Source: an uncultured candidate division Zixibacteria bacterium
Lineage (GTDB): Bacteria > Zixibacteria > MSB-5A5 > GN15 > FEB-12
Assembly (NCBI GenBank): GCA_963735035.1
Contig: CAVTJJ010000002.1
Coordinates: 64,001-128,000, forward strand
Direction: 5' to 3'
Length of the DNA: 64,000 bases
Shown: piece by piece, positions 1,102-58,392 of the stretch
Numbering within the stretch: position 1 is the stretch's first letter
How the letters are laid out: each line of letters opens with the position of its first letter
The notes under the pieces: generated by a model
What the model was told of the DNA's origin: nothing
Seen by the model: only the letters and a program-made list of their open reading frames with translations
Database searches by the model: none
Made by a program: the position numbers and the translations under genes

Positions 1102-2262
1102 ATGATTCCTCCGAACTATGCAGTACGAAATATCTCCAAACACAAAGTAACCTCGCTTCTCACGATGGCCGGGCTCAGTCTCGTGGTCTTTGTCTTTGCA
1201 GGGTCTCTGATGTTGTCAAACGGATTGAATGAAACCATGGTGGCAACGGGACAGCCTGACAACGTCTCGTTAATCCGCAAGTCGGCTCAGACGGAAGTCA
1301 TGTCGATCGTGTCGTACGAACAGGCTCAGATAGTCAAGGCGGATCAGGACGTAGCCCGCGACCAGGACGGCAATCCGCTCGTAGCCAGTGAAATATACGT
1401 CCTGATTAGTTTGCCCAAACGTGACACACAGGATGAAGCCAATATCGTTGTACGTGGCGTTGGCCCCACATCCTTCGCGCTTCGCCCGAATGTGAAGTTG
1501 GTCGAGGGTCGAATGTGGACAGATCCCGGCTCGGAAGTCATCGCCGGATTATCGGCTTCGAAACGCTACACCGGCTGTGCCGTGGGTGAAAAGCTGAGAT
1601 TCGGAGCCCGGAATTGGACCGTAGTGGGGATTTTCGAGGCCGGTGGCACAGGCTTTGAATCGGAAATCTGGTGCGATATCAATCAGGCCTCCGATGTCTT
1701 TCGGCGCCCGGTCTATTCATCGTTGTTGGCCCGCCTGACCGACACGACGCGGTTCGAGGCCTTCAAGGCCCGGGTAGAAGCCGACCCGCGCCTGACGCTC
1801 GACGTGAAGCGGGAGAAGGATTACTACGCGGCACAGACGCAGATGTTGGGCACCTTCATCAGTATCACTGGAACGGTCATCAGCATAGTCTTTTCTCTCG
1901 GTGCGATTGTCGGCGCCATGATCACCATGTACGCCGCTGTCGCGAACCGTACCCGGGAAATCGGAACCCTTCGGGCTCTTGGCTTTAACCGTTGGAGTAT
2001 CCTGACCGTCTTTCTCTTCGAATCGCTGTTGATAGCCCTGGCGAGTGGCCTGATTGGGATAGGCGCCGCTTACTTTCTGAATTTCCTGCAAATCTCGACG
2101 ACCAACTGGGGCACCTTCTCCGAAATTGCCTTCAACCTCCAACTTTCGACCGGAATCGTCCTGAAGACCCTGGCGTTTGCCCTGATAATGGGGCTGGTCG
2201 GAGGCTTCCTGCCATCGGTTCGTGCCTCACGGCTCCGCATTGTCGATTCTCTGCGGGGCTGA
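1102..2262 (+). CDS. MacB/FtsX-family ABC transporter permease
   Basis: MYAAVANRTREIGTLRALGF motif, 4 TM topology; ATG at 1102 after GAGG. Confidence 0.88.
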   Translation: MIPPNYAVRNISKHKVTSLLTMAGLSLVVFVFAGSLMLSNGLNETMVATGQPDNVSLIRKSAQTEVMSIVSYEQAQIVKADQDVARDQDGNPLVASEIYVLISLPKRDTQDEANIVVRGVGPTSFALRPNVKLVEGRMWTDPGSEVIAGLSASKRYTGCAVGEKLRFGARNWTVVGIFEAGGTGFESEIWCDINQASDVFRRPVYSSLLARLTDTTRFEAFKARVEADPRLTLDVKREKDYYAAQTQMLGTFISITGTVISIVFSLGAIVGAMITMYAAVANRTREIGTLRALGFNRWSILTVFLFESLLIALASGLIGIGAAYFLNFLQISTTNWGTFSEIAFNLQLSTGIVLKTLAFALIMGLVGGFLPSVRASRLRIVDSLRG

Positions 2263-2342
2263 TAGGTCTGTGCGCCGTTGACAGATAGCTGTCGTGCGAG
2301 TCGCACGTCCGGAGTGTGCGGCTCAATCAGGACGTTTTTGAT

Positions 2343-2393
2343 GTCTCATCCATGAGACTTTTCTTGACATTTTGGTCCAAATGGTTGTATAAT
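2343..2393 (+). promoter_or_regulatory. Consensus sigma70 promoter with upstream palindrome, driving the RiPP cluster
   Basis: TTGACA (2364-2369), 18 bp spacer, TATAAT (2388-2393); inverted repeat GTCTCAT-CC-ATGAGAC at 2343-2358. Confidence 0.7.
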
Positions 2394-2781
2394 CACCAAA
2401 GAGTTGCGGAATTTGCGGTGGTACGACTTCTCGCCTATACACCCCGCATAGATTTACTTAATTCGTTCTGACCGTTTACGGTATCCGTCATCGGGGGTCA
2501 GACAAATGCATCCAGCGGACTGCTTCGCCCAACTCAGAACAAGAAGTGGTTGCTGGATATGTCTGACTTTATCAGAACCTGGTCAAGAGTCTCCTTCACT
2601 GCCGGAACTAATTCCATTGACGGCTTCTGCCTCCAGCAATTACCACCCTTCTGCTTCCTAACAAACAAGACAGATTATCCCGAAGCGCGGGCTAAGACTT
2701 CGCTTCCGCATGATGCGGTGTGCGAGGTATTGGCGCCGCAAACCGCCCAGTGGGCCTCACACCCTTTCACGGAGGTTCGTG

Positions 2782-2886
2782 ATGATTTTCTTGATTGAGC
2801 CGAACTCAATCCGTCCCCCCTTCTGCCACAAGTGCTCCTTGTTCTGCAGCAAGGAAATTGGACTGTACGGCATTGACCCGACCTAA
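2782..2886 (+). CDS. RiPP precursor peptide 1, MIFLIEPNSIRPPFCHKCSLFCSKEIGLYGIDPT (34 aa)
   Basis: Translated by hand; GGAGG RBS at 2771; paralogous to precursors 2 and 3; below ORF-track cutoff. Confidence 0.9.
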   Translation: MIFLIEPNSIRPPFCHKCSLFCSKEIGLYGIDPT

Positions 2887-2934
2887 TCCGGGTAGATCGC
2901 GAATTCAACTTAATTAGAAGAGTTCGCATGACTT

Positions 2935-2963
2935 GTGAGGGAGCGGTCCTGCCGTTCCCTCAC
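2935..2963 (+). terminator. Stem-loop after precursor 1 (no U-tract; terminator or mRNA-stabilising hairpin)
   Basis: GTGAGGGAGCGG-TCCTG-CCGTTCCCTCAC, 12 bp with one G-U pair. Confidence 0.55.
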
Positions 2964-3092
2964 CCTGATAACTATGAGTAAGTTGCATTGATACTGTACC
3001 ATCTGGGATGGGTCACGACTGAAGAGCAATTTCAGACGTGAGCTTCCCAGCTAATCGGCCACATGGCCCGCACCCTCACATGGAGGTCCGTG

Positions 3093-3188
3093 ATGATCTT
3101 TTTGATTGAGCCGAATTCGGTTAACCCGCCGAACTGCACAACCAAGTGCAGTCCGAAGAGATACCCGTTGTATGGTATCGATGTTTGA
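3093..3188 (+). CDS. RiPP precursor peptide 2, MIFLIEPNSVNPPNCTTKCSPKRYPLYGIDV (31 aa)
   Basis: Translated by hand; GGAGG RBS at 3082; conserved leader and LYGI motif. Confidence 0.9.
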   Translation: MIFLIEPNSVNPPNCTTKCSPKRYPLYGIDV

Positions 3189-3205
3189 TGAGTGCTTTTG
3201 AGTAC

Positions 3206-3232
3206 GCGGGGAACGGCCCAGCCGTTCCCCGC
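3206..3232 (+). terminator. Stem-loop after precursor 2
   Basis: GCGGGGAACGGC-CCA-GCCGTTCCCCGC, perfect 12 bp. Confidence 0.55.
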
Positions 3233-3366
3233 CTCTAGAATCCGAAGACATTTGATTTAGGTAGAAGCAACTCCGGAACGAGTCACGATTGAGCCAATGG
3301 TTTCAAGATTGGCTTGGCCCGGCTAACCGGCCCAAAAGGCCTGAACCAACCATAGGAGGTTTTTCA

Positions 3367-3468
3367 ATGATCTTCTTAATCGAACCGAACACGGTCAATC
3401 CGCCTTGCGTCGTTAAAGTTTGTGCGAGAATTGTACCGCTCTACGGCATCAAGCCGATCGAGATCTGA
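3367..3468 (+). CDS. RiPP precursor peptide 3, MIFLIEPNTVNPPCVVKVCARIVPLYGIKPIEI (33 aa)
   Basis: Translated by hand; AGGAGG RBS at 3354; conserved leader and LYGI motif. Confidence 0.9.
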   Translation: MIFLIEPNTVNPPCVVKVCARIVPLYGIKPIEI

Positions 3469-3509
3469 TCTCGGTAGCTGATTTCTACCGATCTCGGTAG
3501 ATAAGCTGT

Positions 3510-3542
3510 CGTTAGGGAGAACGATCTTCGTTCTCCCTAACG
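3510..3542 (+). terminator. Stem-loop between precursor 3 and the maturase genes
   Basis: CGTTAGGGAGAACGA-TCT-TCGTTCTCCCTAACG, perfect 15 bp. Confidence 0.6.
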
Positions 3543-3569
3543 CTGAATACAACATTTAGTGCGACCAGT

Positions 3570-4925
3570 ATGCTGACTTTATCTTCATATAATTACTTCG
3601 CCCCCTGGCACGACGGTTATTTCCTTGCGTACAATGCCCGTTCGGGAGCAGTTGCACTGCTCAACGAAGAGAATCAACGAACCTTTCAGGTACTGCTTCA
3701 AAAGATTAGCGACCATCAGACGGAACAACTTAACCCTGAAGAGCAGGAGTTGTTGAAACAACTGCAGTATGGCAAGTTCGTTCACACGGTCGAACCGCCT
3801 GAAATCGACGTATTGAAGTTCGAAAGCCAGCGCGCCAGGTACGACATGACCTCGCTGGGGCTTGTCATCGCCCCCACCATGGCCTGCAACATGGCCTGCA
3901 CGTATTGTTATGAAAGTTCGCGCGGCGGTCGCATGACAGCGGCGACGATGGACTCGGTGGCGCAACTGATAGAAAAGCAAGCCAGGAGCCTGAAGGATTT
4001 GGCCCTGACATGGTATGGCGGCGAACCCCTCCTGGCCATGAACATCATAGAAGATTTGACTTCAAGGATCCTCCGTCTGACGGAACAATACGAAATCAAG
4101 TACACCTCGGCCATTATTACCAACGGCTATCTCCTGGATAAAGAGACCGTCGATCGTTTGCGACAGCTCCACGTGACTGCCGCCCAGGTCACTCTTGACG
4201 GCCCGGCTGCAATTCACAATCGCAAACGGCCCCTTGTGAATGGCCGACCTTCATTTGACACTATCGTTGAGAACTTGAAGTATGCGACCACGAAACTCGG
4301 GATAGGCATCCGAGTCAACGTCGACAAGGAATTCTCACTGGACACAATCGGTCAATTGCTTGATGAACTGGACGGCGCAGGGCTTCGTGATCGTCTGGGC
4401 GTACATTTCGCCCTGATGGAGCCCGCCACGACCGTGTGCTCCAATATCAGTGAAAATTGCTATGATACGGCCGGATTTTCAGCCGTCGAGACCGAATTCT
4501 ATACCCTGCTCCTGGAGCGGGGCTTCCGAATAGAGAAACTCCCGTCACCCATGATGGTGGCCTGCATGGCGCAACTGGTTAATGCCTATGTGGTGGACCC
4601 CGACGGTGACCTGTACCGGTGCTGGAATTACATCGGCGACAAGTCGCACGCCTGCGGCAACATCGCCCAGGAACTTAACCCCGTGCACCCCGAGTTCATG
4701 CGCCTGTTCTCCTTTGATCCCTTTGAAGATAACAAGTGCCGCGAATGTAACGTTTTGCCTCTTTGCCAGGGCGCGTGTCCGTCGCGACGCTTTGACCGTA
4801 ATGTCACAGCCGATCAGCAGTGTGAAAGCTGGCGGTACAACTTGGAGCCGATGCTCGACCTGATCGCCCGGTCGCGCTGGCGGCAAATGCAAAACGCCAA
4901 CCAGGAAGCGAAGAAACCAGTATGA
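3570..4925 (+). CDS. Radical SAM/SPASM peptide maturase with N-terminal RRE-like domain (Clo7bot/Cys-rich-peptide maturase type)
   Basis: ~90 aa N-terminal extension (SSYNYF...LAYNARSGAVA...LLKQLQYGKFV), CNMACTYC, WYGGEPLL, SPASM cysteines (CMA...GDLYRC...CRECNVLPLCQGACP...C). Confidence 0.9.
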   Translation: MLTLSSYNYFAPWHDGYFLAYNARSGAVALLNEENQRTFQVLLQKISDHQTEQLNPEEQELLKQLQYGKFVHTVEPPEIDVLKFESQRARYDMTSLGLVIAPTMACNMACTYCYESSRGGRMTAATMDSVAQLIEKQARSLKDLALTWYGGEPLLAMNIIEDLTSRILRLTEQYEIKYTSAIITNGYLLDKETVDRLRQLHVTAAQVTLDGPAAIHNRKRPLVNGRPSFDTIVENLKYATTKLGIGIRVNVDKEFSLDTIGQLLDELDGAGLRDRLGVHFALMEPATTVCSNISENCYDTAGFSAVETEFYTLLLERGFRIEKLPSPMMVACMAQLVNAYVVDPDGDLYRCWNYIGDKSHACGNIAQELNPVHPEFMRLFSFDPFEDNKCRECNVLPLCQGACPSRRFDRNVTADQQCESWRYNLEPMLDLIARSRWRQMQNANQEAKKPV

Positions 4926-6064
4926 GCGATTTCAAATTCTTTCCGCACTACGTAGTCTGGGAGACTACTTTTGCCTGCAACATGCGTTGTGTTCACTGCG
5001 GCACGTCCGCGGGCAAGCAACGCCCGGATGAACTTACCACCAAAGAGTCACTCGCCCTGATCGATGAACTGGCTGATCTGGGCACGGCGCACCTGGTTCT
5101 TTCCGGTGGCGAGCCGCTGCTTCGCAAAGACTGGCGCGAGTTGACCAGGAGATCCAAACAGCGTGGCATCGGCACCTACATGATCACCAATGCCTTCGCC
5201 ATTACCCCCCAGATTGTCGACGACATGCTGGCCGCCGGGATGGACAAGATCGGCATCAGTTTTGACGGCACCGAGAAGACTCATAACTATATCCGCCAGC
5301 GCGATGACAGCTATGCCAAAGTCATCAACGCGTTCAAGTGGTGCAACGAACGTAAACTGAGATTCCAGGCGGTGTCGCAGATCTCCAATATCAACATCGG
5401 CGAAATGGATCAGATGCGCCAGATTCTGATCGACAACGGCGCCGTCGATTGGCGCATCCAGATGACCACGACCACCGGTCGCATGCGCGGCCTGAGCGAC
5501 ATGGTCCTGTCTATTCCCAACTACACAAAGTTGATCGATAAGTGCATCGAATTCCGCAATCTCGACGGCGTGAAGATCGATCCGGGCGAAAACATCGGCT
5601 ACTTCGGCTGTAAGGGTACCGAACTTATCGACGGCGGCATTTATCTCGGCTGCTACGCCGGCACCAGAGTCGCCGGAGTGGAGTCCAACGGCAACATCAA
5701 GGGATGCTTGTCGATGCAGGAAGACTTTGTCGAAGGCAACATCCGCGATTCCTCGTTCACGGAGATTTGGAATCGGCCCGACGCTTTCGCCTACAATCGC
5801 CAGTTCACCCGCGAGACGGCCGGTGGACCGTGCCGTAAGTGCCATTATCTTCCGTTGTGCCGGGGCGGCTGCACCACGACTTCGTTTGCACAAACAGGTG
5901 AACGAGCCAACAACCCGTACTGCATTCATCGCATTGAGCTCGAAAAAGGTATACAGGCGCCGCCGGATGAACCATATATTGCGGAAATACTGGCGCGGTT
6001 CGAACCACCTGAGGCCGTAGTGACCGATGCTACGCCGCGCTCGACGCCTGATATACCGTCATAG
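4922..6064 (+). CDS. Radical SAM/SPASM enzyme, PlpX-like splicease candidate
   Basis: YVVWETTFACNMRCVHCG, WRIQMTTTTGR, PGENIGYFG, GCYAG...GVESNGNIKGCLSM, LCRGGCT...NNPYCIHR; no N-terminal RRE; 4-nt overlap with upstream gene. Confidence 0.8.
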   Translation: MSDFKFFPHYVVWETTFACNMRCVHCGTSAGKQRPDELTTKESLALIDELADLGTAHLVLSGGEPLLRKDWRELTRRSKQRGIGTYMITNAFAITPQIVDDMLAAGMDKIGISFDGTEKTHNYIRQRDDSYAKVINAFKWCNERKLRFQAVSQISNINIGEMDQMRQILIDNGAVDWRIQMTTTTGRMRGLSDMVLSIPNYTKLIDKCIEFRNLDGVKIDPGENIGYFGCKGTELIDGGIYLGCYAGTRVAGVESNGNIKGCLSMQEDFVEGNIRDSSFTEIWNRPDAFAYNRQFTRETAGGPCRKCHYLPLCRGGCTTTSFAQTGERANNPYCIHRIELEKGIQAPPDEPYIAEILARFEPPEAVVTDATPRSTPDIPS

Positions 6065-6145
6065 CAGACAGACTATAATGCCACTTCGGAACTGTCACGA
6101 CGTCAGACTTCTTTGCACACCCGGTTCCGGGTCAGGTGTATCGGA

Positions 6146-7903
6146 ATGACCAGTCTGATCGCCAAGTTCGGACGATTGTGGGGTTACATTCGTCCGTATC
6201 GTTATCACCAGGCGCTGATGCTCCTGGTGATGGCTATCCTGGCCGTCCTGGTCATAGCCTTGCCGGCGGCGATCCAGTACATGATCGACACCCTGATCCC
6301 GGGGTTGATCGCATCGAGTTCCAACGGGTTCAATTTCCGGCCGCTCGTTCTCTTCTGCCTCTTCCTGGTATCGGTATATCTTGCAGACATATTCTTCGCC
6401 TGGGTGAGGGACTACCTCTCAGGCTACATCGGCGCCCGCATCATTCGCGACCTTCGCTCCCAGCTCTTCGCGCATCTCGAACGCCTGTCGCTGAAGTTCT
6501 TCCAGGAACACCGGGTGGGAGAAGTGATGTCGCGGCTGCTTTCTGATGTCGGCCGTGTGCAGGACTTGTTGTCTTCCACGCTCATGGCCTTGATCACCCA
6601 GGCCCTCATGCTGGCCGCGATCCTCGCATACCTTCTGTCGATCAACTGGATGCTCACTCTGGTCGCTGTGATACCGGTTCCGCTTTCGATCATCTTGACT
6701 AATGCGTACGGCATCCGCTTGAATTTCCTCGCCCGGCTCATTCAGGAGACCCAGGCCGCTCTCTCGGGCCGTCTTCAGGAATCCCTGATGTCGGTCAAGA
6801 CCATCAAGGCGTTCGGCCAGGAAGACCGGGAAAAGAAGAAGTTGGACGACGTCCTCGAGACGCTCACCCACGTGCTGGTCAAGAACAGTTGGATGAATTC
6901 GCTGGCCGTCAACGTGGTCAATTTCTTCAACCAGATCGGCCCGATCGTGGTCCTGGCATGGGGCGTTTATCTGGTAGTGGCGGGCGAGATGAAGATGGGC
7001 CAGTTGATGGGTTTCTACATCCTACTGACTTTCCTTTATTCCCCTATCCAGGGTTTGGCTCAGTCGTTCCTGCAAATCCAGACCGCGATGGCCTCGGTCG
7101 ATCGCGTGTTCGAATACCTGGACATTCCCCCAGCAGTGGTCGAAGACCCAAACCCCGTCACATTGTCGCAATTCAAAGGTGACATTGAGCTCTGTCAGGT
7201 CCGGTTCGTCTACGAAGATTCCCATTTTAGCGTCGATGACTTCTCCTTGTCGATTCATGCCGGTGAAAAAGTTGCGTTCGTGGGGCCTTCAGGCGCAGGC
7301 AAGACCACCATTGCCAACCTGATCCTCAGGTTCTATGACCCCGACCGCGGGCAGATAACTCTGGATGGTGTTGATCTTCGAAGGCTCCCAATCAAATTCC
7401 TTCGCGACCAGATCGCCCTCGTAGATCAGGACCCGCTGTTGTTCAAGGGAAGCATTCGAGAAAACATCGCCTACGGCCGACCTGAGGCGACTCAGGACGA
7501 AGTCGAAGCGGCCGCCCGGGTGGCAAACATCCATGAATTCATCATGTCACTTCCGCGGGGGTACGAGGCTGAAATTGGCGAGCGCGGCGTGACCGTATCG
7601 GGCGGCGAGAAACAGCGCCTCTGCCTGGCACGGGCGATTTTGACTGATCCGAAGATTCTCATTCTGGACGAAGCCACGTCGGCGCTCGACTCGATGTCGG
7701 AACGATTGATTCAGGATTCACTTGCGAAGATTCTAAAGGGCAAGACGGCGATCATTATCGCTCATCGCCTCGCGACGGTCCAGAATGCCGACCGGATCGT
7801 GGCGCTTGAGTCCGGCCGCATAGTAGATCAGGGCACGCACGACGAGCTGACCGCCCGCTGCCCGCTCTATCGTGACCTCGCCGCGAAACAGTTGTTGGTT
7901 TAA
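6146..7903 (+). CDS. ABC exporter (fused TMD+NBD, MsbA/Sav1866 type, no C39 peptidase domain)
   Basis: 6 TM region, Walker A GPSGAGKT, signature VSGGEKQR, Walker B ILILDEATS. Confidence 0.92.
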   Translation: MTSLIAKFGRLWGYIRPYRYHQALMLLVMAILAVLVIALPAAIQYMIDTLIPGLIASSSNGFNFRPLVLFCLFLVSVYLADIFFAWVRDYLSGYIGARIIRDLRSQLFAHLERLSLKFFQEHRVGEVMSRLLSDVGRVQDLLSSTLMALITQALMLAAILAYLLSINWMLTLVAVIPVPLSIILTNAYGIRLNFLARLIQETQAALSGRLQESLMSVKTIKAFGQEDREKKKLDDVLETLTHVLVKNSWMNSLAVNVVNFFNQIGPIVVLAWGVYLVVAGEMKMGQLMGFYILLTFLYSPIQGLAQSFLQIQTAMASVDRVFEYLDIPPAVVEDPNPVTLSQFKGDIELCQVRFVYEDSHFSVDDFSLSIHAGEKVAFVGPSGAGKTTIANLILRFYDPDRGQITLDGVDLRRLPIKFLRDQIALVDQDPLLFKGSIRENIAYGRPEATQDEVEAAARVANIHEFIMSLPRGYEAEIGERGVTVSGGEKQRLCLARAILTDPKILILDEATSALDSMSERLIQDSLAKILKGKTAIIIAHRLATVQNADRIVALESGRIVDQGTHDELTARCPLYRDLAAKQLLV

Positions 7904-36515: not shown

Positions 36516-39500
36516 CTACTTCAATAACACCATCTTCTTGCTTTGTGTGAAACTGCCGGCGGTGATACGATAGAAGTAGATGCCCGAACTGACCTGGCGG
36601 CCACCGTCATCCGTGCAATTCCACGTTACCTTATAGCTACCGGCCGTTTGATCCTCGTCCACCAAAGTGCGCACCGTTTGACCGAGGACGTTGAAGATCT
36701 GTATTTCTACGCGGGATTGAGCTGGCACACTGTAATCAATGGTCGTCGTCGGATTGAACGGGTTGGGGTAGTTCTGGCCGAGCACAAATTCAGTCGGGAG
36801 CGTTGCGTCGTTCGAAGTCTCATCCGGTTTATAGACTACGTTTGGCGTAGACAACGGTATAACCCCGGCTGGAATCATGATTCTCTGGTGGATTCGCCCG
36901 ATATTGGTCACTAACGCGGCGTCGACGGTCACAGCCTGGAACCGGTCGGCGAAATACCTGAGAGCCTGCGTGGCCGTAGCGCCGTCAGTCGAAACAATTG
37001 CAAGCTGGCTTAGCCGCGTGGCACCTACGTTCAGCAGGTCCGCCAGCAAGTACTTCCGTCCCAAATGCAGCGTACTGTTGTCGACCAGAACATTCCACTG
37101 ATACAACACGTCATTCAGAGTCATCGCCCGGGCGGGTGACCCTGTATAGGTGATATTGAGAATACGTATCTGGAGACCGTCGTTACGGTTGTAGTAGGCG
37201 TCGAAGATCGCCTGGAGGTAGCCGTCTATCTGGGCGCGAGTCATGTGATAATCACTCGCAGCGCCGGTGCTAATGGCCACGATCTCCCGCTTCCAGGTCC
37301 AGAAGTCTATGATGCCTGACATGTTGGTGAGGCTGAGTACGAAGTCAACCACGAGGTCAGTACCAGCCACGGTGATCGGCACCAATTCGGCTGATACCGC
37401 AGCGAAGCCTATCGGAAGCTCAACCCTGACTGTGTACGAGCCCGGCAGGACTCCCGTTATCAAGTATTGTCCGTCTTCGGCCGTGATGGCCTGTTTCACG
37501 ACTGCTGAAGCCCCGTTCAACAGTGTCACCTGGACACCATAGAGTCCGGCAATATCGGTCTGAACCGTCCCTCGTATCGAGGCCGTGGCCAGTCCGCTTT
37601 GAATCGTCATTTTCGCCGTGTTGTTGTCCTCGGAGCACTCCGCGAGCACTCCCGCCGGATCAACTACCGCGTAGATATCCCTCGGCAAGGGTCCTACGAC
37701 ATAGTTGACTTGTACGGTAGCCGCACTGCCGGCAGCCAGTGAAGGAATAATCTGATCGGTTCCGATCTGTACTCCGCCCGGCAGAGCGCCGTCGAAGAAT
37801 CGCACGACCACGTTTGAGGCCGTAACCGAACCCACCGCGTTATGCACTACTGCAGAGACCGTTACCGTCTGGCCAACCTGCGGCCCTGCTGGGGCCAGGC
37901 TGAGGTCGGCGTCTGCCACATAGAGATCCAGAGGAATGAGGGATACATTGACATCACACTCGGCGGAATCCAACCCCACTTCCGTTGGTCTAACCTTAAT
38001 ATGGAAAGCATAAGTTTTTGCATCGGTTAGATCGAAACACAACTGACCGTCCAACCAGGTGGCCGGAGCCGGTGTCACTATTACCTGGCCGTAATCCTCG
38101 ATGACCAGTGGGACACAAACGTGGGCCGGACTACAGACTTGAACGACTATCGGTCCTGTTGGACAGTCAATCACAGGCGACCGAGTCAACTCGCCAAAAC
38201 CGCCATACATGATGTTCGGCGTGGCCGGATCCACAACCCCGGCCGCAATTATCTGATTCTGATGAATCATGGAGATATTATCAACCAGCGCTGCGTCGAT
38301 CGGGCCGGCGATGAAACGCTCCGACAGATAACGCAGAGCCTTACTGGCCGTGGCGCCGTCGGCGGTAACAATCGCCAGTTGGCTTATCCTCGCCGATACG
38401 ATATTCAGAAGGTCAGCCAGGAGGTATTTCCGTGCTATCGAGGCGCTGCTGTTGTCGGCCAGGACATTCCATTGGTAGATAATGTCGTCGAGCGTCATGG
38501 CCCGCGCCGGATATCCCGTATAGGTGACATACAGCATGCGCGTTTGATGGCCGTCATTGCGTAGATAGTAGGCATTGAATATGGTCTGTAGATATCCGTC
38601 AATCTGGGCGCGGGTCATGCCGTAAGCACCGGCTGCACCAGTACTAATGGCCACAATCTCCCGTTTCCAGCTCCAATAATCGATCACACCCGGCGATACC
38701 GCTAACGTCAGGTCAAGATTCCGGACCACCTCACTCCTGGCCACGGCGACAGTTTGTTCTACCCCACCAATTACGCTGAACCCAATAGGTGACTGAACCA
38801 CCATTCGGTAATTGTCGACCGGCAGGTTGATTAAAGCATAGTACCCGTACTGGTCGCTGATCGCCCTGGCAAAGGGCACTCCGGTCGTACTGTACAGATC
38901 AACATAGACGCCATTCAGACCGATGGCACCGGCTTTGATCAAACCGTGAATGGAGCCTATTGTGCTGGCGGCGCCTGTGAAATTGGCGGTCACAGTCTTG
39001 TTGCTATTCATGACCACGGCCGTAATCGGAGAGGCCGGGTTCTCGACGTCGCCTGTCCACGAAGCAAACGTATATCCAATGGCTGCCGAAGCTGCAACGC
39101 TCACACTGGAGCCCACAAGATAGTGGATAGTGCCGGCGAGTGGACTAGTAGTGCCTCCGGTGGTCGGAGAACTACCAATTGTCATGTCATAAACCAACGT
39201 GGGCACAATCGAGTCGACAGGGACAACAACTTTGGCAAAATAGACATCGAATGGCCCAGTGCCGGAGCGCCATGTAACAGGTATATACGGTGAATTGGCC
39301 GGCACATGAAAGGCGGTATTGGGATCACGCGCATACGCCTGGGTCGATACCTGGTATTCCGCACTCCACGTCAACGTCACTTGTGACCAACGCTTATAAT
39401 ATATTCGCGATGAAGCATCGTCTGCCGACGTCTTACGGCAGTAAAACACATACATATCGTTGCCCCTGACCGTCGTAATCGGATACCAGGCAATACTGCT

Positions 39501-40397
39501 GTTGCTGGCATCAGTGGCTATAATAGTCGTGTGCCAGGCGCCGGTTCCGTTGGCGTAATTCTTCCAGACGTGACGCAAGTTCGTTCCCTGTCCGAAGACC
39601 AGGTGCATGATCGTATCGTTGATCTGGTTGTGGGAAAAGGAACGGTCGTTCACCGGGTTAATTGGATAGATCGAATGATCCGACATCGCCTGGAAACTAA
39701 ATCCGTTCCACAGGTAGTATTCGTAACCTCGAGGATCGTTGAGATAAAGCACTACCAGAACTGGGTTGCCGTTCACATACGGCATGGATCCGATTCTGAC
39801 ATTGAGTGCGCCGGTAGCAACGGCTACTCCCCGGGTCCAGGTCGAGCCGCCGTTGTCGGAATATTGATAGCGCACGTTTTCGGTGGCGCTTCCCCCCAGG
39901 CGCGTAAACACCCAGATTCGGCCGGTGTTCTGCACCATAATACTGGAGCGATGATTCGCCGTGGTACCGCTGAGGTTAACGAGAGCGCCCGCATCCGATA
40001 TGGATTCCGCGGGAGCGTTGAAGTGCCTGAAAGCAATTGCCGAGGTCGAGGGGAAAGTGAAGTACAGATCGTCGCCGGAACCCGATAGCGACAGATGCAT
40101 ATCCAGGTAGCCGTTGATCGTGGTTGTATTGGTACTCCAGGTGGTTCCGGCGTCCTGTGTATAGATTAGATTATTGGAGCGAGAGCCGTTGTTGGCGTAA
40201 CCGATCCACATCTTATTGGGGTCGGTTGGCGACATATACGCCTTCCAGCGCGGAATCCCCAGCGTGGGGCCGTCGGTAGCGGATGATGTGGCTATCCGAA
40301 TCGGCACTGTCAACGAATCTGCGAGGGTGTTGACGGCCATTATCCCAAGTACTACCCCTGCCGTCAGCAACACTCTAATTGAATTTAACTTTCTCAT
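36516..40397 (-). CDS. Large secreted protein: BNR/sialidase-like propeller, InlB-B-like repeat, carboxypeptidase-regulatory-like domains, CARDB, duplicated helical domain, FlgD/T9SS-type CTD
   Basis: Asp-boxes TQDAGTTW and SDNGGSTW; FASWTGD...KTVTANF; VDP...ECSEDNN; LGQNYPNPFNP...KKMVLLK. Confidence 0.82.
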   Translation of the reverse strand: MRKLNSIRVLLTAGVVLGIMAVNTLADSLTVPIRIATSSATDGPTLGIPRWKAYMSPTDPNKMWIGYANNGSRSNNLIYTQDAGTTWSTNTTTINGYLDMHLSLSGSGDDLYFTFPSTSAIAFRHFNAPAESISDAGALVNLSGTTANHRSSIMVQNTGRIWVFTRLGGSATENVRYQYSDNGGSTWTRGVAVATGALNVRIGSMPYVNGNPVLVVLYLNDPRGYEYYLWNGFSFQAMSDHSIYPINPVNDRSFSHNQINDTIMHLVFGQGTNLRHVWKNYANGTGAWHTTIIATDASNSSIAWYPITTVRGNDMYVFYCRKTSADDASSRIYYKRWSQVTLTWSAEYQVSTQAYARDPNTAFHVPANSPYIPVTWRSGTGPFDVYFAKVVVPVDSIVPTLVYDMTIGSSPTTGGTTSPLAGTIHYLVGSSVSVAASAAIGYTFASWTGDVENPASPITAVVMNSNKTVTANFTGAASTIGSIHGLIKAGAIGLNGVYVDLYSTTGVPFARAISDQYGYYALINLPVDNYRMVVQSPIGFSVIGGVEQTVAVARSEVVRNLDLTLAVSPGVIDYWSWKREIVAISTGAAGAYGMTRAQIDGYLQTIFNAYYLRNDGHQTRMLYVTYTGYPARAMTLDDIIYQWNVLADNSSASIARKYLLADLLNIVSARISQLAIVTADGATASKALRYLSERFIAGPIDAALVDNISMIHQNQIIAAGVVDPATPNIMYGGFGELTRSPVIDCPTGPIVVQVCSPAHVCVPLVIEDYGQVIVTPAPATWLDGQLCFDLTDAKTYAFHIKVRPTEVGLDSAECDVNVSLIPLDLYVADADLSLAPAGPQVGQTVTVSAVVHNAVGSVTASNVVVRFFDGALPGGVQIGTDQIIPSLAAGSAATVQVNYVVGPLPRDIYAVVDPAGVLAECSEDNNTAKMTIQSGLATASIRGTVQTDIAGLYGVQVTLLNGASAVVKQAITAEDGQYLITGVLPGSYTVRVELPIGFAAVSAELVPITVAGTDLVVDFVLSLTNMSGIIDFWTWKREIVAISTGAASDYHMTRAQIDGYLQAIFDAYYNRNDGLQIRILNITYTGSPARAMTLNDVLYQWNVLVDNSTLHLGRKYLLADLLNVGATRLSQLAIVSTDGATATQALRYFADRFQAVTVDAALVTNIGRIHQRIMIPAGVIPLSTPNVVYKPDETSNDATLPTEFVLGQNYPNPFNPTTTIDYSVPAQSRVEIQIFNVLGQTVRTLVDEDQTAGSYKVTWNCTDDGGRQVSSGIYFYRITAGSFTQSKKMVLLK

Positions 40398-52765: not shown

Positions 52766-55700
52766 TCAGTTCTGGTCGAGCCAGTCATTGATAAACATTC
52801 CGAGCGTGCCATAGGCGGCGCCAAATATTAGTCCCCTGTATGGAAGTGGTAGCCTCGTCCATTGGCGCATTGCCCACGGCCACTTCATATCTCTGGTAAT
52901 GCCTTTTACGAAGTTCCCTCTCGGGTCATGCATTGTGTGCACCCACTTAGACACGTAGTTGCCGTTCCAAATCGTGTAACGATTGAACCTCGCAATACCA
53001 AGTTTTTCGAAGTACCTTGTCGGAAACCAGTGTGAGAACTGTAATCCCGACCTTGTTGAGCCCAGCTTCCAATACCTGGCAGACCGTGCCAGAGACATTC
53101 TCACTCCTCCGGTTAGACCTGTGAATGTACTAGCGGCGAATCCAGCCCATTCTCCAATCTTGTAAGCGTTCGAGCAAACATCGGTATAGTAGTCTCCGCC
53201 ATAGAGTTCCGTGCGCCTTATTATTTTGGTGATGCCCAGTGATGCTACATCACCAAATCCTATCATGAATTGAGCGGCATCGTCACCAAACTCACCCAAA
53301 GAGTACAACCCCATAGGGTCTATATAGTTTATCGGATTCTGGCCGGCGTAGCCATACAAATTCAACCCTCCAGCAATACCAATCGGGTCCGGCGTTATAT
53401 ACCGACCCAGGGTTGGCTGGTACTGGCGGAACATGTTGTAGTACAAATCGGTCGAACGGTCATGGTATTGTCCAGGGAACCGCGGATTACTAAGCGTTGA
53501 CGCGTTCTCACTTGCCAGCGCGCCAAACGGGTAGTACTGCGCACTCCAGCGGATAGTCTTTGCAGAGTCGGTCACGGCCTGTGGCGTCCCGAGATGGTCG
53601 TTGTGGTACCAGCCAATGTCAAAATGGGTCACGGTTGTAGTGTCTACTTCCTCGTTGTACGCCCACACTCGCGCGATCGGCTGCCCGTATAAGTAGACAT
53701 AGTCGGTCTCCCAATCCCCGGAGTAGTATTCGGTCAGCAGCAGCCCGTTGGCGGCATGAATGTACCGGCTTGTCCCACCGGGCGTGGTCAAGGACGAGCG
53801 CTGGCTCCTCGAGTTGTAGGCCTGCTGGTAGGTCGTGTCGTTCTGAGTCACCGACACCAACCGGTTCGCTTGGTCATACCCGTACTCGGTGGTGTCAGAC
53901 CCGACTACCTGCGTGACCAGATTGCCAATATCATCGTATACAAAACTCGCCTGTGTGAACCCGGACAAGCCGGTCAGTCGGTTGTTCGCATAGGTGTAAG
54001 TCGTTGTATCATAGCCCACTATCTCTCTGCGACGGTCGCCGTTGTCATAATACTCGTACCGGATTGTGTCCTGCGCCAGTGACGATCGAATCATCCGGGT
54101 CAAGCGGTTCTGCTTGTCATAGGAATAGCTCGTGCTATTCCCCGTATTGAGCGAATCGTAGTACGACAGCACGTTCCCAGTTGTATCGTACAGGTACGAC
54201 CGCCGCAAGACCGTGTCCGCACCAGTACTGATCCCCGTAAGAAATCCCCGGGTGTCATAATTGTACTTAGTCTCTATCCCGTTGCCGTACCAGACCGACT
54301 TGATCCCGCCGAAAGGCTCGTAGGCAATCGAATCCGCAATGACTTGAGATTGTCCCTCGCCGAACTGAGCGCTCACCCGGCTCACACGTCCCTCGGAATC
54401 GTACGAGTAGGTGTACTCTACACCCGACGGATAGGTCACCGAGGCAACCTCACCATTCTTGGTGTAAGTGTATGCTATGACGCAGGATGTGTCGTCAAGT
54501 TCGTGGGCTTCCTCGATCACCCGCCCGAAGGCATCGTACTCATATTCGATACCCACTCCATCTTTCGCTTCCCTCACCAGCCGACCCCGGGCATAGGCAG
54601 ATGTCGAGTCGCCGTCGTACTCATAGGTAACATCCAGCGTGCTGTCCGGGTAGTCAGCCAAAGTCACCCGCCCCAGAGCATCGTATTCGAACTCAACCGT
54701 CGTCCCGCTGGCATCGGCGTGACTGACCAGGTTACCCGCAGCGTCGTAAGCGTACTCGGTCACCCCAGTAACCGCGCAGCTATCTCTTAGCAAATGGCCG
54801 CGATCATCGTACCAGAACGCGAACACATTGCTGTCCGGATCGGTGACTCGTGTGAGGTTGTCCTGGATGTCATAAGCCAGATGGGTCGTCAGGTGAGAGC
54901 CGTCATCTGCCACTTCTACAATCTCCGTCACTCTGCCAAATAGGTCATACTCTATGAAGGTGGAGTCATTTAGTGCTGAGACTATAATCGTATCAAGCCA
55001 CCCCATCGCGTCATAGCGGTACTCGTACCCTTCCCGCTCGGTCAACTGGGACTTCCAGTTGTAGGTGTATGCCTCTTGCATGCGAAGCTGATTGGCAGTG
55101 TCGTAGTAATTGACGCTGCTGAGGTTCGACATGTTGTCGTAGTCGTACGCTATAGAGTCGCCGCTACCATTGAGGAGATATGTCAGCCAGTTGTGCTCAT
55201 CATAGTTCAACGAATAAGTGTTGCCCATCGGCGAGGTGATCTCAGTGATGGCTCCCTTGCAATTGAGAGTCAGGTCTGTGGACGCACTATCGGCGCTTAG
55301 TGAGTTCTCGAGGATGCGGTTGACACGCCCCCGTTTGTCGTACTCGTATTCTGTCTTAACGCCATTTGGCTCAATGACATACGGCATACTTCCCGGCCCG
55401 ATGTCGCGTGCTCCGAAAGCCACGGTATCGCCGTTTGGGAAGATCGCATAAAGCAAGTCTGCGGTAGTCGAGTCGTATCGAAGAGCAATCGTATCAGCAA
55501 TATTTGTACGTGGACCATCAACTTTGATGAGTTGACCTCGAGAGTTGTAGTCAAACCTGGAGGTGTCAGCGTAGCTAGTACTGGAATCGATCCAGCCGGT
55601 TTCAATCCGTTCTAAAGCGTTGCCATTGGAATCTCGAACCAATACCGTTTCTCGATACCCCGACGGATTGGCGACACTGGCCATTTTGATGCGAGTCGGC

Positions 55701-57406
55701 AGATTATAGGTAGCGTCGTATTCGAAGGTCGTAGTAATTGAGTCTCCGTAATAGGCGTCACGAATAAGAGTATCGAGGTTGCCGTAATCGTCATACTCCG
55801 TCAAGTCAATGCGCCCATTGGCGTACTCGACTGAAGTTACGCGCCCCTGAAAGTCATGGTGGAAGTGACGACCGCAGCTACCGCAGTCATTGTCAACAAC
55901 ATCTTCCAGGTAACGTCGCCAGTTTCCGGTGTTCTGTCGGGAATAATAGGAGGTTGTTAGAGAAGTATCGTGATTCTGAGTCACTTCCGTCTCGTATATG
56001 CGAGCCGTGATGACGGTGTCGATCGTGGTATCCACACCGTCGACAATCGTATCGACATAGAACTCAGTGGAATCTTGCGTATAGGCCAATGATACGTGCT
56101 CCACGTCAGGGCCAATATCGTTGTACGCTTCTACTACCATGCCACATGAACCATATCTAAAATGCCACGAAGCACCGTCCGAAGTGGTGGTCTGCACAAT
56201 GCGGCGGCGATCTGCGGACGCTGTCCCGGCCGTGTATTGCTCCCACGAACTGTCCGGGTAGGTCACTTTCCTCAGGAATCCCGTCGAGTCCACGTATGCG
56301 TATCTAACCAACACATGGTTGTCCGCGTCATTGACGCTGTACAGCACGTACTGTCCTCCTGCGGTGGTGTACTCCAAATCAAGGTGTCTAGTGCTATCAA
56401 CAGCAATGCGACGCAGATAACCGCCCGACCAATCTAACTTGATTTGATTGCCGTTACGGTCTGTGATCTTGGTCAGGTTGAACAGTAGTGTATCCCCGTA
56501 GGAGAATTCGAGTAGGGTACCATCGTCGGTCGTAACGACATATCTGTTACTATCCGCATTGTAGTCCAGAGCGTATTCCGATTCGACCGGACTGAACGAC
56601 CGATTGCCCACACTCCCCTGTCCCTTGAAGTGTATTGCCCTGCCGGTCCCCTCTACCATGACAACCTCATTCACAATATACGCTTCAGAGAGATCATTGT
56701 AAGGGTACCACCGATCTGCTTCATACAGCCTGGCGTTGTAGTTGTAAGTCCACATCTTGGTGGGATTTGGCTTGCTTTCATTGGAGTAGCTGTTGTAGTA
56801 GCGCGTAAACGAAATGGGGAGCCCTGCATCATTCTCCACCACCGCGTCAGTCCGGACCAAATTGAGATTCCCGTTGACTGCATTAACCGGATCACTTATA
56901 GCTGACGCGCATGCCATAGGGCCAAAATCCGCCGCCACGTCCGGCAGAAACGGCACGCTAACAGCAACATTGGACTTGCTCCTGCATATCACCACAGTAC
57001 TGTTATTGTCATAGGATGAGGCAGCAGTTTCAAATGTGACAACACGGCTGCACCAACCCACGGTCAGATACTTGTCGCTGATGTTGCAATGGACACAGCC
57101 TGTATCGTTGGGTATTCCCGCAGTACATTCGACCGAACTACCAAACCCATTGCCCCCTGCAACGCACTTCACCGAGAAACGATTTGTCGCGCTTGGATAA
57201 GCATCGAACATAGTGCCTGATCCGTTAACGCGAAATTTGTGGGTGCGAGTGGCAGCGTTTACAACCGACGAGTGCTGCACCGAGACACTTGCTCCGTTTG
57301 CACAGTCACCATTACAGCCAGAAATAATATCGCCTTGCCCGAGCGTATCAGGCGGGCACAACAGAAGCGCGACAATGACGATAGCAGCCAACAGCAGAGC
57401 ATCCAT
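52766..57406 (-). CDS. Rhs/YD-repeat polymorphic toxin (start uncertain; ORF open to 57622)
   Basis: DPVNAVNGN...FTRYYNS (DUF6531-like), many YD repeats, RFPGQY...PDPIGIAGGLNLYGYAGQNPINYIDPMGL. Confidence 0.93.
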   Translation of the reverse strand: MDALLLAAIVIVALLLCPPDTLGQGDIISGCNGDCANGASVSVQHSSVVNAATRTHKFRVNGSGTMFDAYPSATNRFSVKCVAGGNGFGSSVECTAGIPNDTGCVHCNISDKYLTVGWCSRVVTFETAASSYDNNSTVVICRSKSNVAVSVPFLPDVAADFGPMACASAISDPVNAVNGNLNLVRTDAVVENDAGLPISFTRYYNSYSNESKPNPTKMWTYNYNARLYEADRWYPYNDLSEAYIVNEVVMVEGTGRAIHFKGQGSVGNRSFSPVESEYALDYNADSNRYVVTTDDGTLLEFSYGDTLLFNLTKITDRNGNQIKLDWSGGYLRRIAVDSTRHLDLEYTTAGGQYVLYSVNDADNHVLVRYAYVDSTGFLRKVTYPDSSWEQYTAGTASADRRRIVQTTTSDGASWHFRYGSCGMVVEAYNDIGPDVEHVSLAYTQDSTEFYVDTIVDGVDTTIDTVITARIYETEVTQNHDTSLTTSYYSRQNTGNWRRYLEDVVDNDCGSCGRHFHHDFQGRVTSVEYANGRIDLTEYDDYGNLDTLIRDAYYGDSITTTFEYDATYNLPTRIKMASVANPSGYRETVLVRDSNGNALERIETGWIDSSTSYADTSRFDYNSRGQLIKVDGPRTNIADTIALRYDSTTADLLYAIFPNGDTVAFGARDIGPGSMPYVIEPNGVKTEYEYDKRGRVNRILENSLSADSASTDLTLNCKGAITEITSPMGNTYSLNYDEHNWLTYLLNGSGDSIAYDYDNMSNLSSVNYYDTANQLRMQEAYTYNWKSQLTEREGYEYRYDAMGWLDTIIVSALNDSTFIEYDLFGRVTEIVEVADDGSHLTTHLAYDIQDNLTRVTDPDSNVFAFWYDDRGHLLRDSCAVTGVTEYAYDAAGNLVSHADASGTTVEFEYDALGRVTLADYPDSTLDVTYEYDGDSTSAYARGRLVREAKDGVGIEYEYDAFGRVIEEAHELDDTSCVIAYTYTKNGEVASVTYPSGVEYTYSYDSEGRVSRVSAQFGEGQSQVIADSIAYEPFGGIKSVWYGNGIETKYNYDTRGFLTGISTGADTVLRRSYLYDTTGNVLSYYDSLNTGNSTSYSYDKQNRLTRMIRSSLAQDTIRYEYYDNGDRRREIVGYDTTTYTYANNRLTGLSGFTQASFVYDDIGNLVTQVVGSDTTEYGYDQANRLVSVTQNDTTYQQAYNSRSQRSSLTTPGGTSRYIHAANGLLLTEYYSGDWETDYVYLYGQPIARVWAYNEEVDTTTVTHFDIGWYHNDHLGTPQAVTDSAKTIRWSAQYYPFGALASENASTLSNPRFPGQYHDRSTDLYYNMFRQYQPTLGRYITPDPIGIAGGLNLYGYAGQNPINYIDPMGLYSLGEFGDDAAQFMIGFGDVASLGITKIIRRTELYGGDYYTDVCSNAYKIGEWAGFAASTFTGLTGGVRMSLARSARYWKLGSTRSGLQFSHWFPTRYFEKLGIARFNRYTIWNGNYVSKWVHTMHDPRGNFVKGITRDMKWPWAMRQWTRLPLPYRGLIFGAAYGTLGMFINDWLDQN

Positions 57407-58392
57407 AGTGCATAGTGAAAGTCCTCTTGGCCAATTGCATTCATAGGTTGACTTGCTTTCCCGTGGATGATCAGTGTAGTCGAACATTTCGTCCTCCCAA
57501 GACGACTCTTTGCATTGCGTTATACCGCAACTAATTTGTTGAGTCTCGTCGCTATCGCACATGCCGGCCCCAAGTTCATATAGTAACACAGTGTACCTTA
57601 TTGTCAATCGTGCAGCACCCACAACAGCAGGTTAGGTTCCCGCACATTGTCATACGCACGAACAGACCAAACCGCACCTTCAAGTGCTCTCAGATAGCCG
57701 ATCTATCAACGACAGATACACACCTGTACCAGATGATCAGTTCATCCCTGCATGCCTTATGTATATGTACAATACTCCTTGACGCTATTATGTCGTACAA
57801 AGGATCATATGTCAAGCACTTTCTGAACAAACAATGTCACATTCTCATGAACTGACCACCACGTATCTAATGAGATCATGTAAGCGATGACTTTGAAGCA
57901 CCCGTCTGTTCGTTCAAAGCGTGTTGACGAGTTCGAACAGAGGCAAGTACATCGCAATGAGGATAAAAGCCACCAGGATGCCTGGTAAGACGACAATGAT
58001 TGATTCTATTAATGATGTGATCGTCGTAATCGCTCAGTGGTCCCACAGCGTCGTGTGGTGATAGACTCATTCATCCGGTGCTCGGCGCGATGTCGCCTCA
58101 TCGTCGATCCAGTTCTCTTCCCAGATCATTCCATTCCGGCCAGGCACCTTGCGAGTGGCGCCAGCCCGATAGATCGAGCAGCTATTCGGCCCGTAGCAAA
58201 ACGTTTCGAACCGATATTTCGTCTTTGACGGGTTCCTCTGATCAAGGATTGCGCGACTATAGCTCTCCTACAACGTCGTGTCGGACTGAGCGAGACACCT
58301 ACTTTCGGGTTGAGAATTGTCACGAATATGACACACATGCGTGAGAAATTTCAACGAACAGCCGTAATGGATTGTGTATCTTTGGCTTGGAT

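Follow-up and report, generated by a model that had tools for sequence, protein, structure and literature searches.

Near the left end of a 64,000-nucleotide stretch of DNA from an uncultured candidate division Zixibacteria bacterium (contig CAVTJJ010000002.1 of assembly GCA_963735035.1, positions 64,001 to 128,000 of the forward strand; hereafter the window), three short open reading frames (ORFs) are followed by two radical SAM (rSAM) genes, which we call rSAM1 and rSAM2, and by an ATP-binding cassette (ABC) transporter gene. On balance, we favor the view that this locus is a cluster for a ribosomally made peptide with post-translational modifications (RiPP) that is conserved in Zixibacteria-type genomes, and that its product is a thioether-bridged peptide with an alpha-keto-beta-Leu or alpha-keto-beta-Met warhead. 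This view draws on the gene content of the locus, its conservation, the family relationships of the two enzymes, and a model of the rSAM2-peptide complex that passes its controls. The window belongs to a genome of 3.6 Mb; most public records of its relatives bear the label Candidatus Zixiibacteriota or GN15.

The three precursor candidates are 31–34 residues long, have identical first 8 residues, and contain 3, 2 and 2 cysteines, respectively. GGAGG stands 6–8 nt ahead of each ATG, and the ribosome-binding site and start region of precursor 2 form a 48-nt direct repeat, 85% identical, of those of precursor 1. Each peptide carries an L-Y-G-I site 3–6 residues from its end, preceded by Gly in peptide 1 and by Pro in peptides 2 and 3. 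A sequence-only reading of the window had picked out these ORFs by their GGAGG sites, shared start, 2–3 cysteines and C-terminal LYGI, together with two different rSAM/SPASM genes and an ABC exporter downstream; the ORFs are present where that reading placed them, and Pfam and NCBIfam confirmed the downstream genes. That reading described all three as missed by the ORF track. In one detail the findings differ: the public protein collection contains no exact copy of peptides 1 and 2, but the exact sequence of peptide 3 is already there, as are exact copies of 2 of the 3 relatives' peptides that were looked up. NCBIfam and Pfam scans of the three window peptides gave no match to any named precursor family.

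We collected the wider family from the window plus 81 fetched loci by a six-frame search whose pattern demanded a start codon, the N-terminal motif and one or more Cys, and nothing else; Tyr-Gly was not part of it. The search yielded 90 peptides, 85 of them distinct, with lengths of 31–48 residues. Tyr-Gly occurs in 81 of the 85, once in 78 and twice in 3. Among these 81 peptides, Pro is found at −2 of the last Y-G in 80. Position X, before Y-G, is filled by L (56 peptides), M (16) or C (9); Gly is mostly followed by V (44) or I (33), and the position after that most often holds P (51) or D (13). The consensus C-terminal site is P-[L/M/C]-Y-G-[V/I]-[P/D], typically one per peptide, with a tail of 3–10 residues after the Gly. 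The four peptides without Y-G were omitted from the 81-row alignment (A3), so Y and G are invariant there partly as a result of this choice.

Cysteines are patterned as well. Upstream of the X-Y-G site, 80 of the 81 peptides have 2–5 Cys, and the last of these lies 6 or 8 residues ahead of the Tyr in 63. In 53 of all 85 peptides position 15 holds the first Cys, and the spacing is mostly CxxxC, occurring once, twice or three times. At the other end, the family shares the heptad M-[I/V/L]-[Y/F]-L-[I/V]-[D/E]-P. Heptad residue frequencies are largely imposed by the search pattern and are therefore not independent evidence; that peptides matching the pattern turn up in nearly every locus is. The precursor peptides are not a chance pattern, and their heptad may act as a very short leader-like recognition element. 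Three variant precursors (L053:2295-2417, L063:2141-2278 and L067:2333-2449) comprise one with a duplicated P-L-Y-G-V and two with Y-S in place of Y-G, and such duplicated-site and Y-S precursors are natural tests of the motif requirement.

Full-length rSAM2 orthologues, with 56–73% identity, are present in 12 of 41 same-order genomes, the window's own genome included, and a 13th genome has an rSAM2 fragment at a contig end that covers the first 62 residues only. In all 12 fetched loci, one to three peptides are followed by an rSAM1 orthologue (48–71% identity) and then by rSAM2. The ABC transporter gene, whose product is 57–72% identical in relatives, comes after the enzyme pair in 10 of the 12; the flank of L016 contains no such gene, and L022 stops at a contig end. 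Between rSAM2 and the ABC gene, 8 of the 12 loci have an extra gene of about 478 codons that is absent from the window. It encodes a radical SAM protein with a B12-binding domain (Pfam B12-binding plus Radical_SAM, e.g. L015:8113-9549), hereafter B12-rSAM, which no NCBIfam model matched at 1e-40 and which may add a further modification such as C-methylation.

A scan at one genome per species returned 79 loci, about 60 of them at ≥49% identity from Zixibacteria-type metagenome-assembled genomes (MAGs) and about 18 at 37–42% from Polyangiaceae or Myxococcota. In a set of 60 loci, made up of the window and 59 loci from public MAGs mostly labelled Zixibacteria/GN15, we found rSAM1 in 58, peptides in 52, the ABC gene in 46 and the B12-rSAM gene in 33. 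Among the 8 loci that lack peptides, a contig end truncates six just upstream, one contains a masked stretch, and one, L057, has full flanks. The B12-rSAM gene was also considered as a tracker of an I-K-P motif before the putative splice site and rejected as such: I-K is the commonest pair both in loci with the gene (27 peptides) and in loci without it (8), so the motif does not discriminate. None of the Myxococcota loci had such peptides. The rSAM2 homologues of Polyangiaceae and Myxococcota (L081-L102, 37–42% identity) stand alone without an rSAM1 partner and are often oriented divergently beside a protein of 220–410 residues with 2–6 Tyr-Gly sites (e.g. L091:2863-4008 and L098:2495-3736).

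The second enzyme of the pair, rSAM2, has Pfam Radical_SAM and SPASM domains, and its CxxxCxxC cysteines (C19/C23/C26) and 8 further cysteines are invariant in 12 orthologues. Its top NCBIfam models, TIGR04103 (named 'nif11-class peptide radical SAM maturase 3'; 229.1 bits) and TIGR03913 (named 'GDL motif peptide-associated'; 228.8 bits), score about 44 bits above NirJ2 (185), with TIGR04133 (185), AhbD (176) and MftC (148 bits) also among the lower-ranked models. We take TIGR04103 to be the same family as InterPro entry IPR026482. The founding splicease, PlpX, is placed in IPR026482 in an excerpt of a published study (PMC11002830). An exhaustive phmmer search with rSAM2 against 1.84 billion cluster representatives gave 491 matches at E≤1e-30; the Zixibacteria rSAM2 family corresponds to a single representative (62% identity), and all other matches are 27–42% identical.

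We scanned 149 of the best 150 of these neighbors, taken as 50%-cluster representatives, against NCBIfam at E≤1e-85; one fragment was skipped. TIGR04103 or TIGR03913 was the top model for 16 of the 149, one of which passes the TIGR03913 cut-off, three two-domain fusions reached the threshold on other models (Clo7bot, TIGR04133, AhbD) via their other domain, and 130 reached it on no NCBIfam model. The neighbor P0067, 36% identical to rSAM2, is 55–58% identical to NCBI-named TIGR04103 members of Nostoc, Calothrix, Scytonema and Microseira. One of the fusions, P0049 (938 residues, on one 252-kb NCBI contig), joins a splicease-like domain (6-342; TIGR04103, 250 bits) to a Clo7bot-like domain (500-929; 422 bits), and the pairing of splicease-like and Clo7bot-like enzymes is therefore not peculiar to this locus. 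P0002, P0124 and P0131 are other two-domain rSAM fusions among the neighbors, many of which have C-terminal extensions of 100–400 residues.

A FastTree (LG+gamma) tree was computed from 172 sequences and 350 columns, with an MftC-like protein from the window's genome as root; in it the Zixibacteria rSAM2 proteins form a clade with support of 0.99. Its sister (0.997) consists of a paralogue from the same genome and two representatives. Together these make up a group of about 24 leaves, whose own sister (0.93) is a 110-leaf clade with all TIGR04103- and TIGR03913-type sequences in it. AhbD-, GeoRSP-, TIGR04133- and MftC-like pieces all fall outside the rSAM2 and splicease-type clades, and rSAM2 does not cluster with NirJ, Ahb or MftC; this placement should not be over-read, because sequences were sampled for their similarity to rSAM2 and only six outgroup pieces were included. 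The outgroup was made up of domain pieces of three fusion proteins and one protein of the window's genome, and searches for AhbD- and MftC-family proteins found loci in the window's own genome only and none in the control genomes. The paralogue (39% identity; L023:4022-5221 (-), which is G000:C3:943646-944752) has no such peptides nearby. It stands alone, adjoining a 1056-residue TPR/CHAT-domain protein, and with its two nearest representatives it mostly lacks two SPASM cysteines (columns C262 and C317).

The peptide counts and the tree bear on an account in which no peptide is modified at all: the two rSAM enzymes would serve cofactor or heme-type biosynthesis, like NirJ, Ahb or PqqE, and the small ORFs would be non-coding or regulatory. 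We find this hardly credible. The NirJ2 and AhbD scores given above, a PqqE match of 105 bits and the annotation of some public rSAM2 relatives as 'heme biosynthesis protein' speak for it. Set against these are the amino-acid-level conservation of the small ORFs in 52 of the 60 loci, where Pro, Tyr and Gly do not vary and Cys follows a pattern, and the ribosome-binding site before each of them. A scan of the region 2200-3700 returned no Rfam family at gathering score, the tree sets rSAM2 apart from the AhbD-like pieces, and the rSAM2-peptide complex model described below passes its controls.

The X-Y-G site resembles those of known spliceotides. PlpXY naturally splices MYG and LYG, and its transferable tag is given as P-I-R-P-(L/G)-Y-G-L-P-I in the excerpted text of PMC10533398; according to an excerpt of PMC11626197, RcsX splices MYG in RcsA, RasX splices LYG in RasA, and protease inhibition depends on the keto-amide. 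The Zixibacteria consensus K-P-[L/M/C]-Y-G-[V/I]-P agrees with the known splice context at 5 of 6 positions, and, as in spliceotides, the site varies at X while Y and G are fixed.

We modelled the complex of rSAM2 (12-row alignment) with peptide 1 (81-row alignment), S-adenosylmethionine and three 4Fe-4S clusters. The complex scored 0.79 (runs of 0.76, 0.82 and 0.79), and the best of three controls 0.02; this score is the model's own confidence, and its calibration, in which 116 of 157 solved complexes against 2 of 215 mismatched pairs attained the score mark, is only rough when our own alignments and ligands are used. At least 81% of contacts agree between runs, with a predicted local distance difference test (pLDDT) value of at least 66 for the partner. 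In the model, peptide residues 25-33, including Y29 and G30, contact rSAM2 residues 12, 28, 56-62, 84-88, 108-111, 149-151, 176-180, 220-224 and 262-264, among which are the conserved GGEP region and further positions of the barrel. The peptide's residues 1-7 contact residues 292-297 and 310-312 in the SPASM part, and the Cys-rich middle of the peptide is mostly free. Q180, N224, an aromatic residue at 241, S264, N292 and R314 at the interface are common to the Zixibacteria clade, 11 of 11 named TIGR04103 proteins and most surrounding sequences, and they differ in the six outgroup pieces. We found no solved structure of a splicease or of a similar complex, and by sequence the PDB entries closest to rSAM2 are SkfB and PqqE (E 1e-24 to 1e-15), so recall of a solved complex is unlikely to explain why the model passed. 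Proven spliceases modelled with AlphaFold2 likewise have XYG in the active center, as stated in an excerpt of Richter et al. (PMC11414181).

The same site could be the target of a different Tyr-directed radical reaction. In this account the locus is still a RiPP cluster, and rSAM2 acts at P-X-Y-G-[V/I] without producing a keto-amide, for example by forming a C-C or C-S cross-link (a three-residue Tyr-x-Val/Ile cyclophane, or Cys-Tyr), by beta-hydroxylation, or by epimerization. We regard it as unlikely, while giving it real weight. The distance of rSAM2 from everything outside its own family (27–42% identity), its failure at both curated cut-offs and its position in a sister clade to the splicease-type sequences leave room for it, and Y-G-[V/I] fits the aromatic-x-x pattern of three-residue cyclophane formers. 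The cyclophane-former models YhhB, GrrM, FxsB and AmcB do, however, match rSAM1 weakly (58–78 bits) and are absent from the top 25 models for rSAM2. MftC, which scores 148 bits on rSAM2 (cut-off 265), is another Tyr-directed rSAM-SPASM enzyme, and with its substrate MftA it offers a parallel in acting on a Tyr near the C-terminus of a peptide of about 30 residues. MftC requires that Tyr to be C-terminal and also requires a separate RiPP recognition element (RRE) protein, MftB; in the Zixibacteria peptides, in contrast, the Tyr is internal and followed by Gly and 3–10 further residues. The agreement of the P-L/M-Y-G-aliphatic-P site with known splice sites, and the variable X beside fixed Y and G, follow the logic of spliceotides and argue for splicing.

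The first enzyme, rSAM1, has radical SAM and SPASM domains by Pfam and NCBIfam, and its best models are all maturases of Cys-rich peptides: TIGR04334, the Clo7bot maturase (343.9 bits), TIGR04463 (301.1), FlmE/OhkG (221), CefB 'Cys-every-fifth' (218), the geopeptide maturase (214) and PapB (132.9 bits). A literature search on Clo7bot, OhkG, FlmE, TIGR04463, TIGR04334 and geopeptide gave unrelated papers only among those listed, so for the chemistry of these rSAM1-type families we go by their NCBIfam names. The solved protein closest to a profile of 13 rSAM1 orthologues is CteB (5wgg/5why; E 5.5e-25). The match runs from residue 16 to 241 of rSAM1 and from 14 to 246 of CteB and, since it starts at residue 16, includes the N-terminal domain of rSAM1. 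The N-terminal domain of CteB is an RRE that binds its leader, and both CteB and PapB form thioethers; the PDB title of 5why agrees with this leader-binding and thioether role. No match to Pfam PqqD was found in rSAM1.

An AlphaFold2 model of rSAM1 (pLDDT 83, predicted template modeling score 0.82) places an N-terminal strand-and-helix domain, residues 1-90, before the barrel. By fold the model is closest to CteB (TM 0.65–0.69 over about 460 columns) and then to TigE (8vpo), anSME and SuiB. rSAM1 is thus CteB-like in both sequence and predicted fold, in agreement with the sequence-only reading, which had called it a thioether-type maturase. Its CxxxCxxC motif and nine further cysteines are invariant, and rSAM1 is therefore most likely catalytically active. 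Taken with its family relationships, this makes rSAM1 a probable Cys thioether-forming enzyme.

It is also conceivable that rSAM2 splices and rSAM1 forms no thioethers, being instead an enzyme of epimerization, C-C linkage or cyclopropanation, or mainly a partner that binds the peptide and activates rSAM2, with the cysteines serving as disulfides or metal ligands; we judge this improbable. The second-best fold match of rSAM1, TigE, is presumably not a thioether enzyme, and rSAM1 scores under every curated cut-off. An excerpt of PMC11414181 states that type I spliceases need a separate RRE-like activator, PlpY, and rSAM1 has an RRE-like domain. The two cysteines of the RcsA and RasA spliceotides form a disulfide in systems without any thioether enzyme (excerpt of PMC11626197). 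Opposing this are the invariant cysteines of rSAM1, which suggest an active enzyme, its best models, which are all maturases of Cys-rich peptides, and the conserved CxxxC spacing and first-Cys position of the peptides. The complex model, moreover, docks the N-terminal heptad straight on rSAM2 with no helper.

Several observations count against a thioether-bridged, spliced product. rSAM2 is outside the clade of named PlpX-family proteins, in its sister clade, and falls far under the curated cut-offs (229 vs 725 bits for TIGR04103; 229 vs 592 bits for TIGR03913), and in the tree NCBI-named members stand in for PlpX, PcpX and RhaX beside just six outgroup pieces. The score of rSAM1 is likewise below each curated cut-off (344 vs 600 for Clo7bot, TIGR04334; the cut-offs of TIGR04463 and PapB are 525 and 340). 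No conserved thioether acceptor residue was identified, and Y-G is absent from 4 of the 85 peptides, at least 2 of which have Y-S at the equivalent site. L057, with full flanks, has no peptide matching the search pattern, and no leader peptidase gene is encoded in the window. The rough calibration of the complex score and the disulfides of RcsA and RasA belong here too. The sequence-only reading had described rSAM2 as splicease-like, and both of the computational checks it proposed went its way: rSAM2 stands apart from NirJ and Ahb, and homologous loci carry the peptides (52 of 60, and all 12 of the fetched same-order loci). Its interpretation is thus partly supported, since the splicease likeness shows in the top models and the sister clade and stops short of the named family itself.

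Inference supplies the two chemistries, the sequence in which they occur and what becomes of the heptad; we would arrange the pathway as follows. rSAM1 would bind the N-terminal heptad through its RRE-like domain and link the CxxxC cysteines to backbone or side-chain carbons, giving sactionine- or ranthionine-type thioethers. rSAM2 would then bind the same heptad on its SPASM domain and splice tyramine out of P-X-Y-G to leave an alpha-keto-beta residue, and the ABC transporter would release the product.

Spliceotides are widespread: later papers, in the excerpted text, cite a 2022 survey for its counts of 27 confirmed pairs, 939 predicted systems and 189 genera, with splicease types defined by enzyme phylogeny and precursor identity. 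The Zixibacteria loci share with the type I pathways of Pleurocapsa (PlpX/PlpY/PlpA, PcpXYA) and the type II pathways of Rheinheimera (RhaX/RasX/RcsX) an rSAM-SPASM gene beside X-Y-G precursors in which X is Leu or Met. They have the P-X-Y-G-aliphatic-P context of the PlpA splice tag, TIGR04103 as the best NCBIfam model of rSAM2 in common with the PlpX family, no separate Y protein, as in the binary splicease types, and, in structure models, Y-G in the barrel as in known spliceases. The differences are also clear. Zixibacteria precursors have 31–48 residues and a 7-residue motif instead of a Nif11/NHLP or helical leader, with several CxxxC cysteines upstream of the site; the loci also encode a second rSAM maturase, which is CteB-like, together with the B12-rSAM gene in 33 of the 60. 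rSAM2 itself differs from the PlpX family in its score (229 bits vs a cut-off of 725), its sister clade and its Zixibacteria lineage.

With CteB, the enzyme of SCIFF/ranthipeptides, PapB, and the uncharacterized Clo7bot (TIGR04334) and TIGR04463 families, rSAM1 shares an N-terminal peptide-binding domain, an rSAM barrel and a SPASM domain, as well as Cys-rich substrates, and these proteins are its best sequence and fold matches. It differs in scoring below all of their curated cut-offs. Relative to SCIFF-type precursors, the Zixibacteria substrate is far shorter and has an extra X-Y-G site; rSAM1 is also paired with a splicease-like enzyme, to which its counterpart in P0049 is fused.

More tentatively, and with somewhat less than even confidence, we suggest that the loci may represent an undescribed RiPP subclass: a peptide of about 35 residues with a 7-residue handle read by both rSAM enzymes, several CxxxC-derived thioethers, an alpha-keto-beta-Leu/Met/Cys warhead and a B12-rSAM modification in about half of the loci. 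The handle is predicted to dock as a strand on the SPASM domain of rSAM2 without an RRE or a Y protein. Our literature searches found no description of a precursor of 31–48 residues, with a 7-residue handle, CxxxC cysteines and one P-X-Y-G site, together with an obligatory CteB-like second enzyme; the 2022 splicease survey may cover the group. Zixibacteria were not named in the papers listed by a literature search on Zixibacteria spliceotides, ranthipeptides, sactipeptides and biosynthetic gene clusters.

The cluster and its candidate RNA elements are listed in Table 1. rSAM2 overlaps the end of rSAM1 by 4 nt, and the two genes are translationally coupled. A strong, GC-rich hairpin that lacks a U-tract follows each precursor gene, and in no case did any of 200 shuffled sequences fold as well: the 92-nt stretch with the first hairpin folds at −37.7 kcal/mol (z −5.2), the second has z −4.7, and the stretch 3466-3569, which holds the hairpin before rSAM1, has z −6.4. 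These hairpins probably raise the ratio of precursor to enzyme transcripts. The transporter's best model is the MsbA-related TIGR02204 (502 bits, under its cut-off of 780), and it is probably the exporter of the product.

Table 1. Features of the cluster in the window, in window positions
Feature	Position	Strand	Description and basis
Small terminator-like hairpin	2343..2358	+	ends upstream FtsX-type permease genes; 6-pair stem then T-run
Putative sigma-70-type promoter	2364..2393	+	TTGACA-18-TATAAT; 12/12 consensus match only
Precursor peptide 1	2782..2886	+	34 aa, 3 Cys, G-L-Y-G-I site, GGAGG before ATG
Hairpin after precursor 1	2935..2963	+	GC-rich, 13 bp, without U-tract; folding vs shuffles
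Precursor peptide 2	3093..3188	+	31 aa, 2 Cys, P-L-Y-G-I site
Hairpin after precursor 2	3206..3232	+	GC-rich, 12 bp, without U-tract; z −4.7, 0/200 shuffles as stable
Precursor peptide 3	3367..3468	+	33 aa, 2 Cys, P-L-Y-G-I site
Hairpin between last precursor and rSAM1	3510..3542	+	perfect, 15 bp, without U-tract; folding vs shuffles
rSAM1	3570..4925	+	radical SAM/SPASM maturase, 451 aa, N-terminal RRE-like domain; NCBIfam/Pfam, CteB match, AlphaFold2 model
rSAM2	4922..6064	+	splicease-like radical SAM/SPASM enzyme, 380 aa; NCBIfam, tree, complex model
ABC transporter	6113..7903	+	fused permease and ATPase, 596 aa, no peptidase domain; Pfam ABC_membrane and ABC_tran

The left edge given to the cluster in the sequence-only reading, position 2343, is the start of the small hairpin, and the promoter consensus comes next, about 390 nt upstream of the first precursor. 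The intervening stretch, 2394-2781, has no conserved ORF and no Rfam match at gathering score; it could be a long 5' leader, or the promoter match could be fortuitous. The FtsX/MacB-type permease genes at 9-2262 were considered as cluster members and excluded because they have no counterpart in 13 fetched loci. Three very large ORFs lie elsewhere in the window, at 36516-40397 (-), 52766-57622 (-) and 60014-64000 (-), encoding 1293, 1618 and >1322 residues. The window's genome also contains a second rSAM pair (L109:116-1456; G000:C4:561428-562396), an rSAM1-like protein of 446 residues followed by a 344-residue rSAM-SPASM protein whose best model is MftC (181 bits, under cut-off), and this pair may belong to a further RiPP cluster.

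As warheads of protease inhibitors, spliced keto-amides are proven: splicing is a condition for the inhibition of elastase, chymotrypsin and cathepsin B by Rheinheimera spliceotides, as given in the excerpt of PMC11626197, and spliceases have been used to place beta-amino acids and reactive handles in proteins (excerpts of PMC10533398 and PMC11414181). If the more tentative reading as an undescribed subclass is correct, the Zixibacteria peptides would be the smallest natural splicease substrates known, and their product would be the first natural product to combine ranthi- or sacti-type bridges with a spliced keto-amide. Substrates of 31–48 residues with a 7-residue motif would offer a scaffold that is compact and easy to synthesize, and perhaps a minimal splice tag, with no helper protein needed and a second cross-linking enzyme built in, and the 85 natural peptide variants are a ready-made library. 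For Zixibacteria, a phylum known only from metagenomes, the cluster would give a first look at specialized peptide chemistry.

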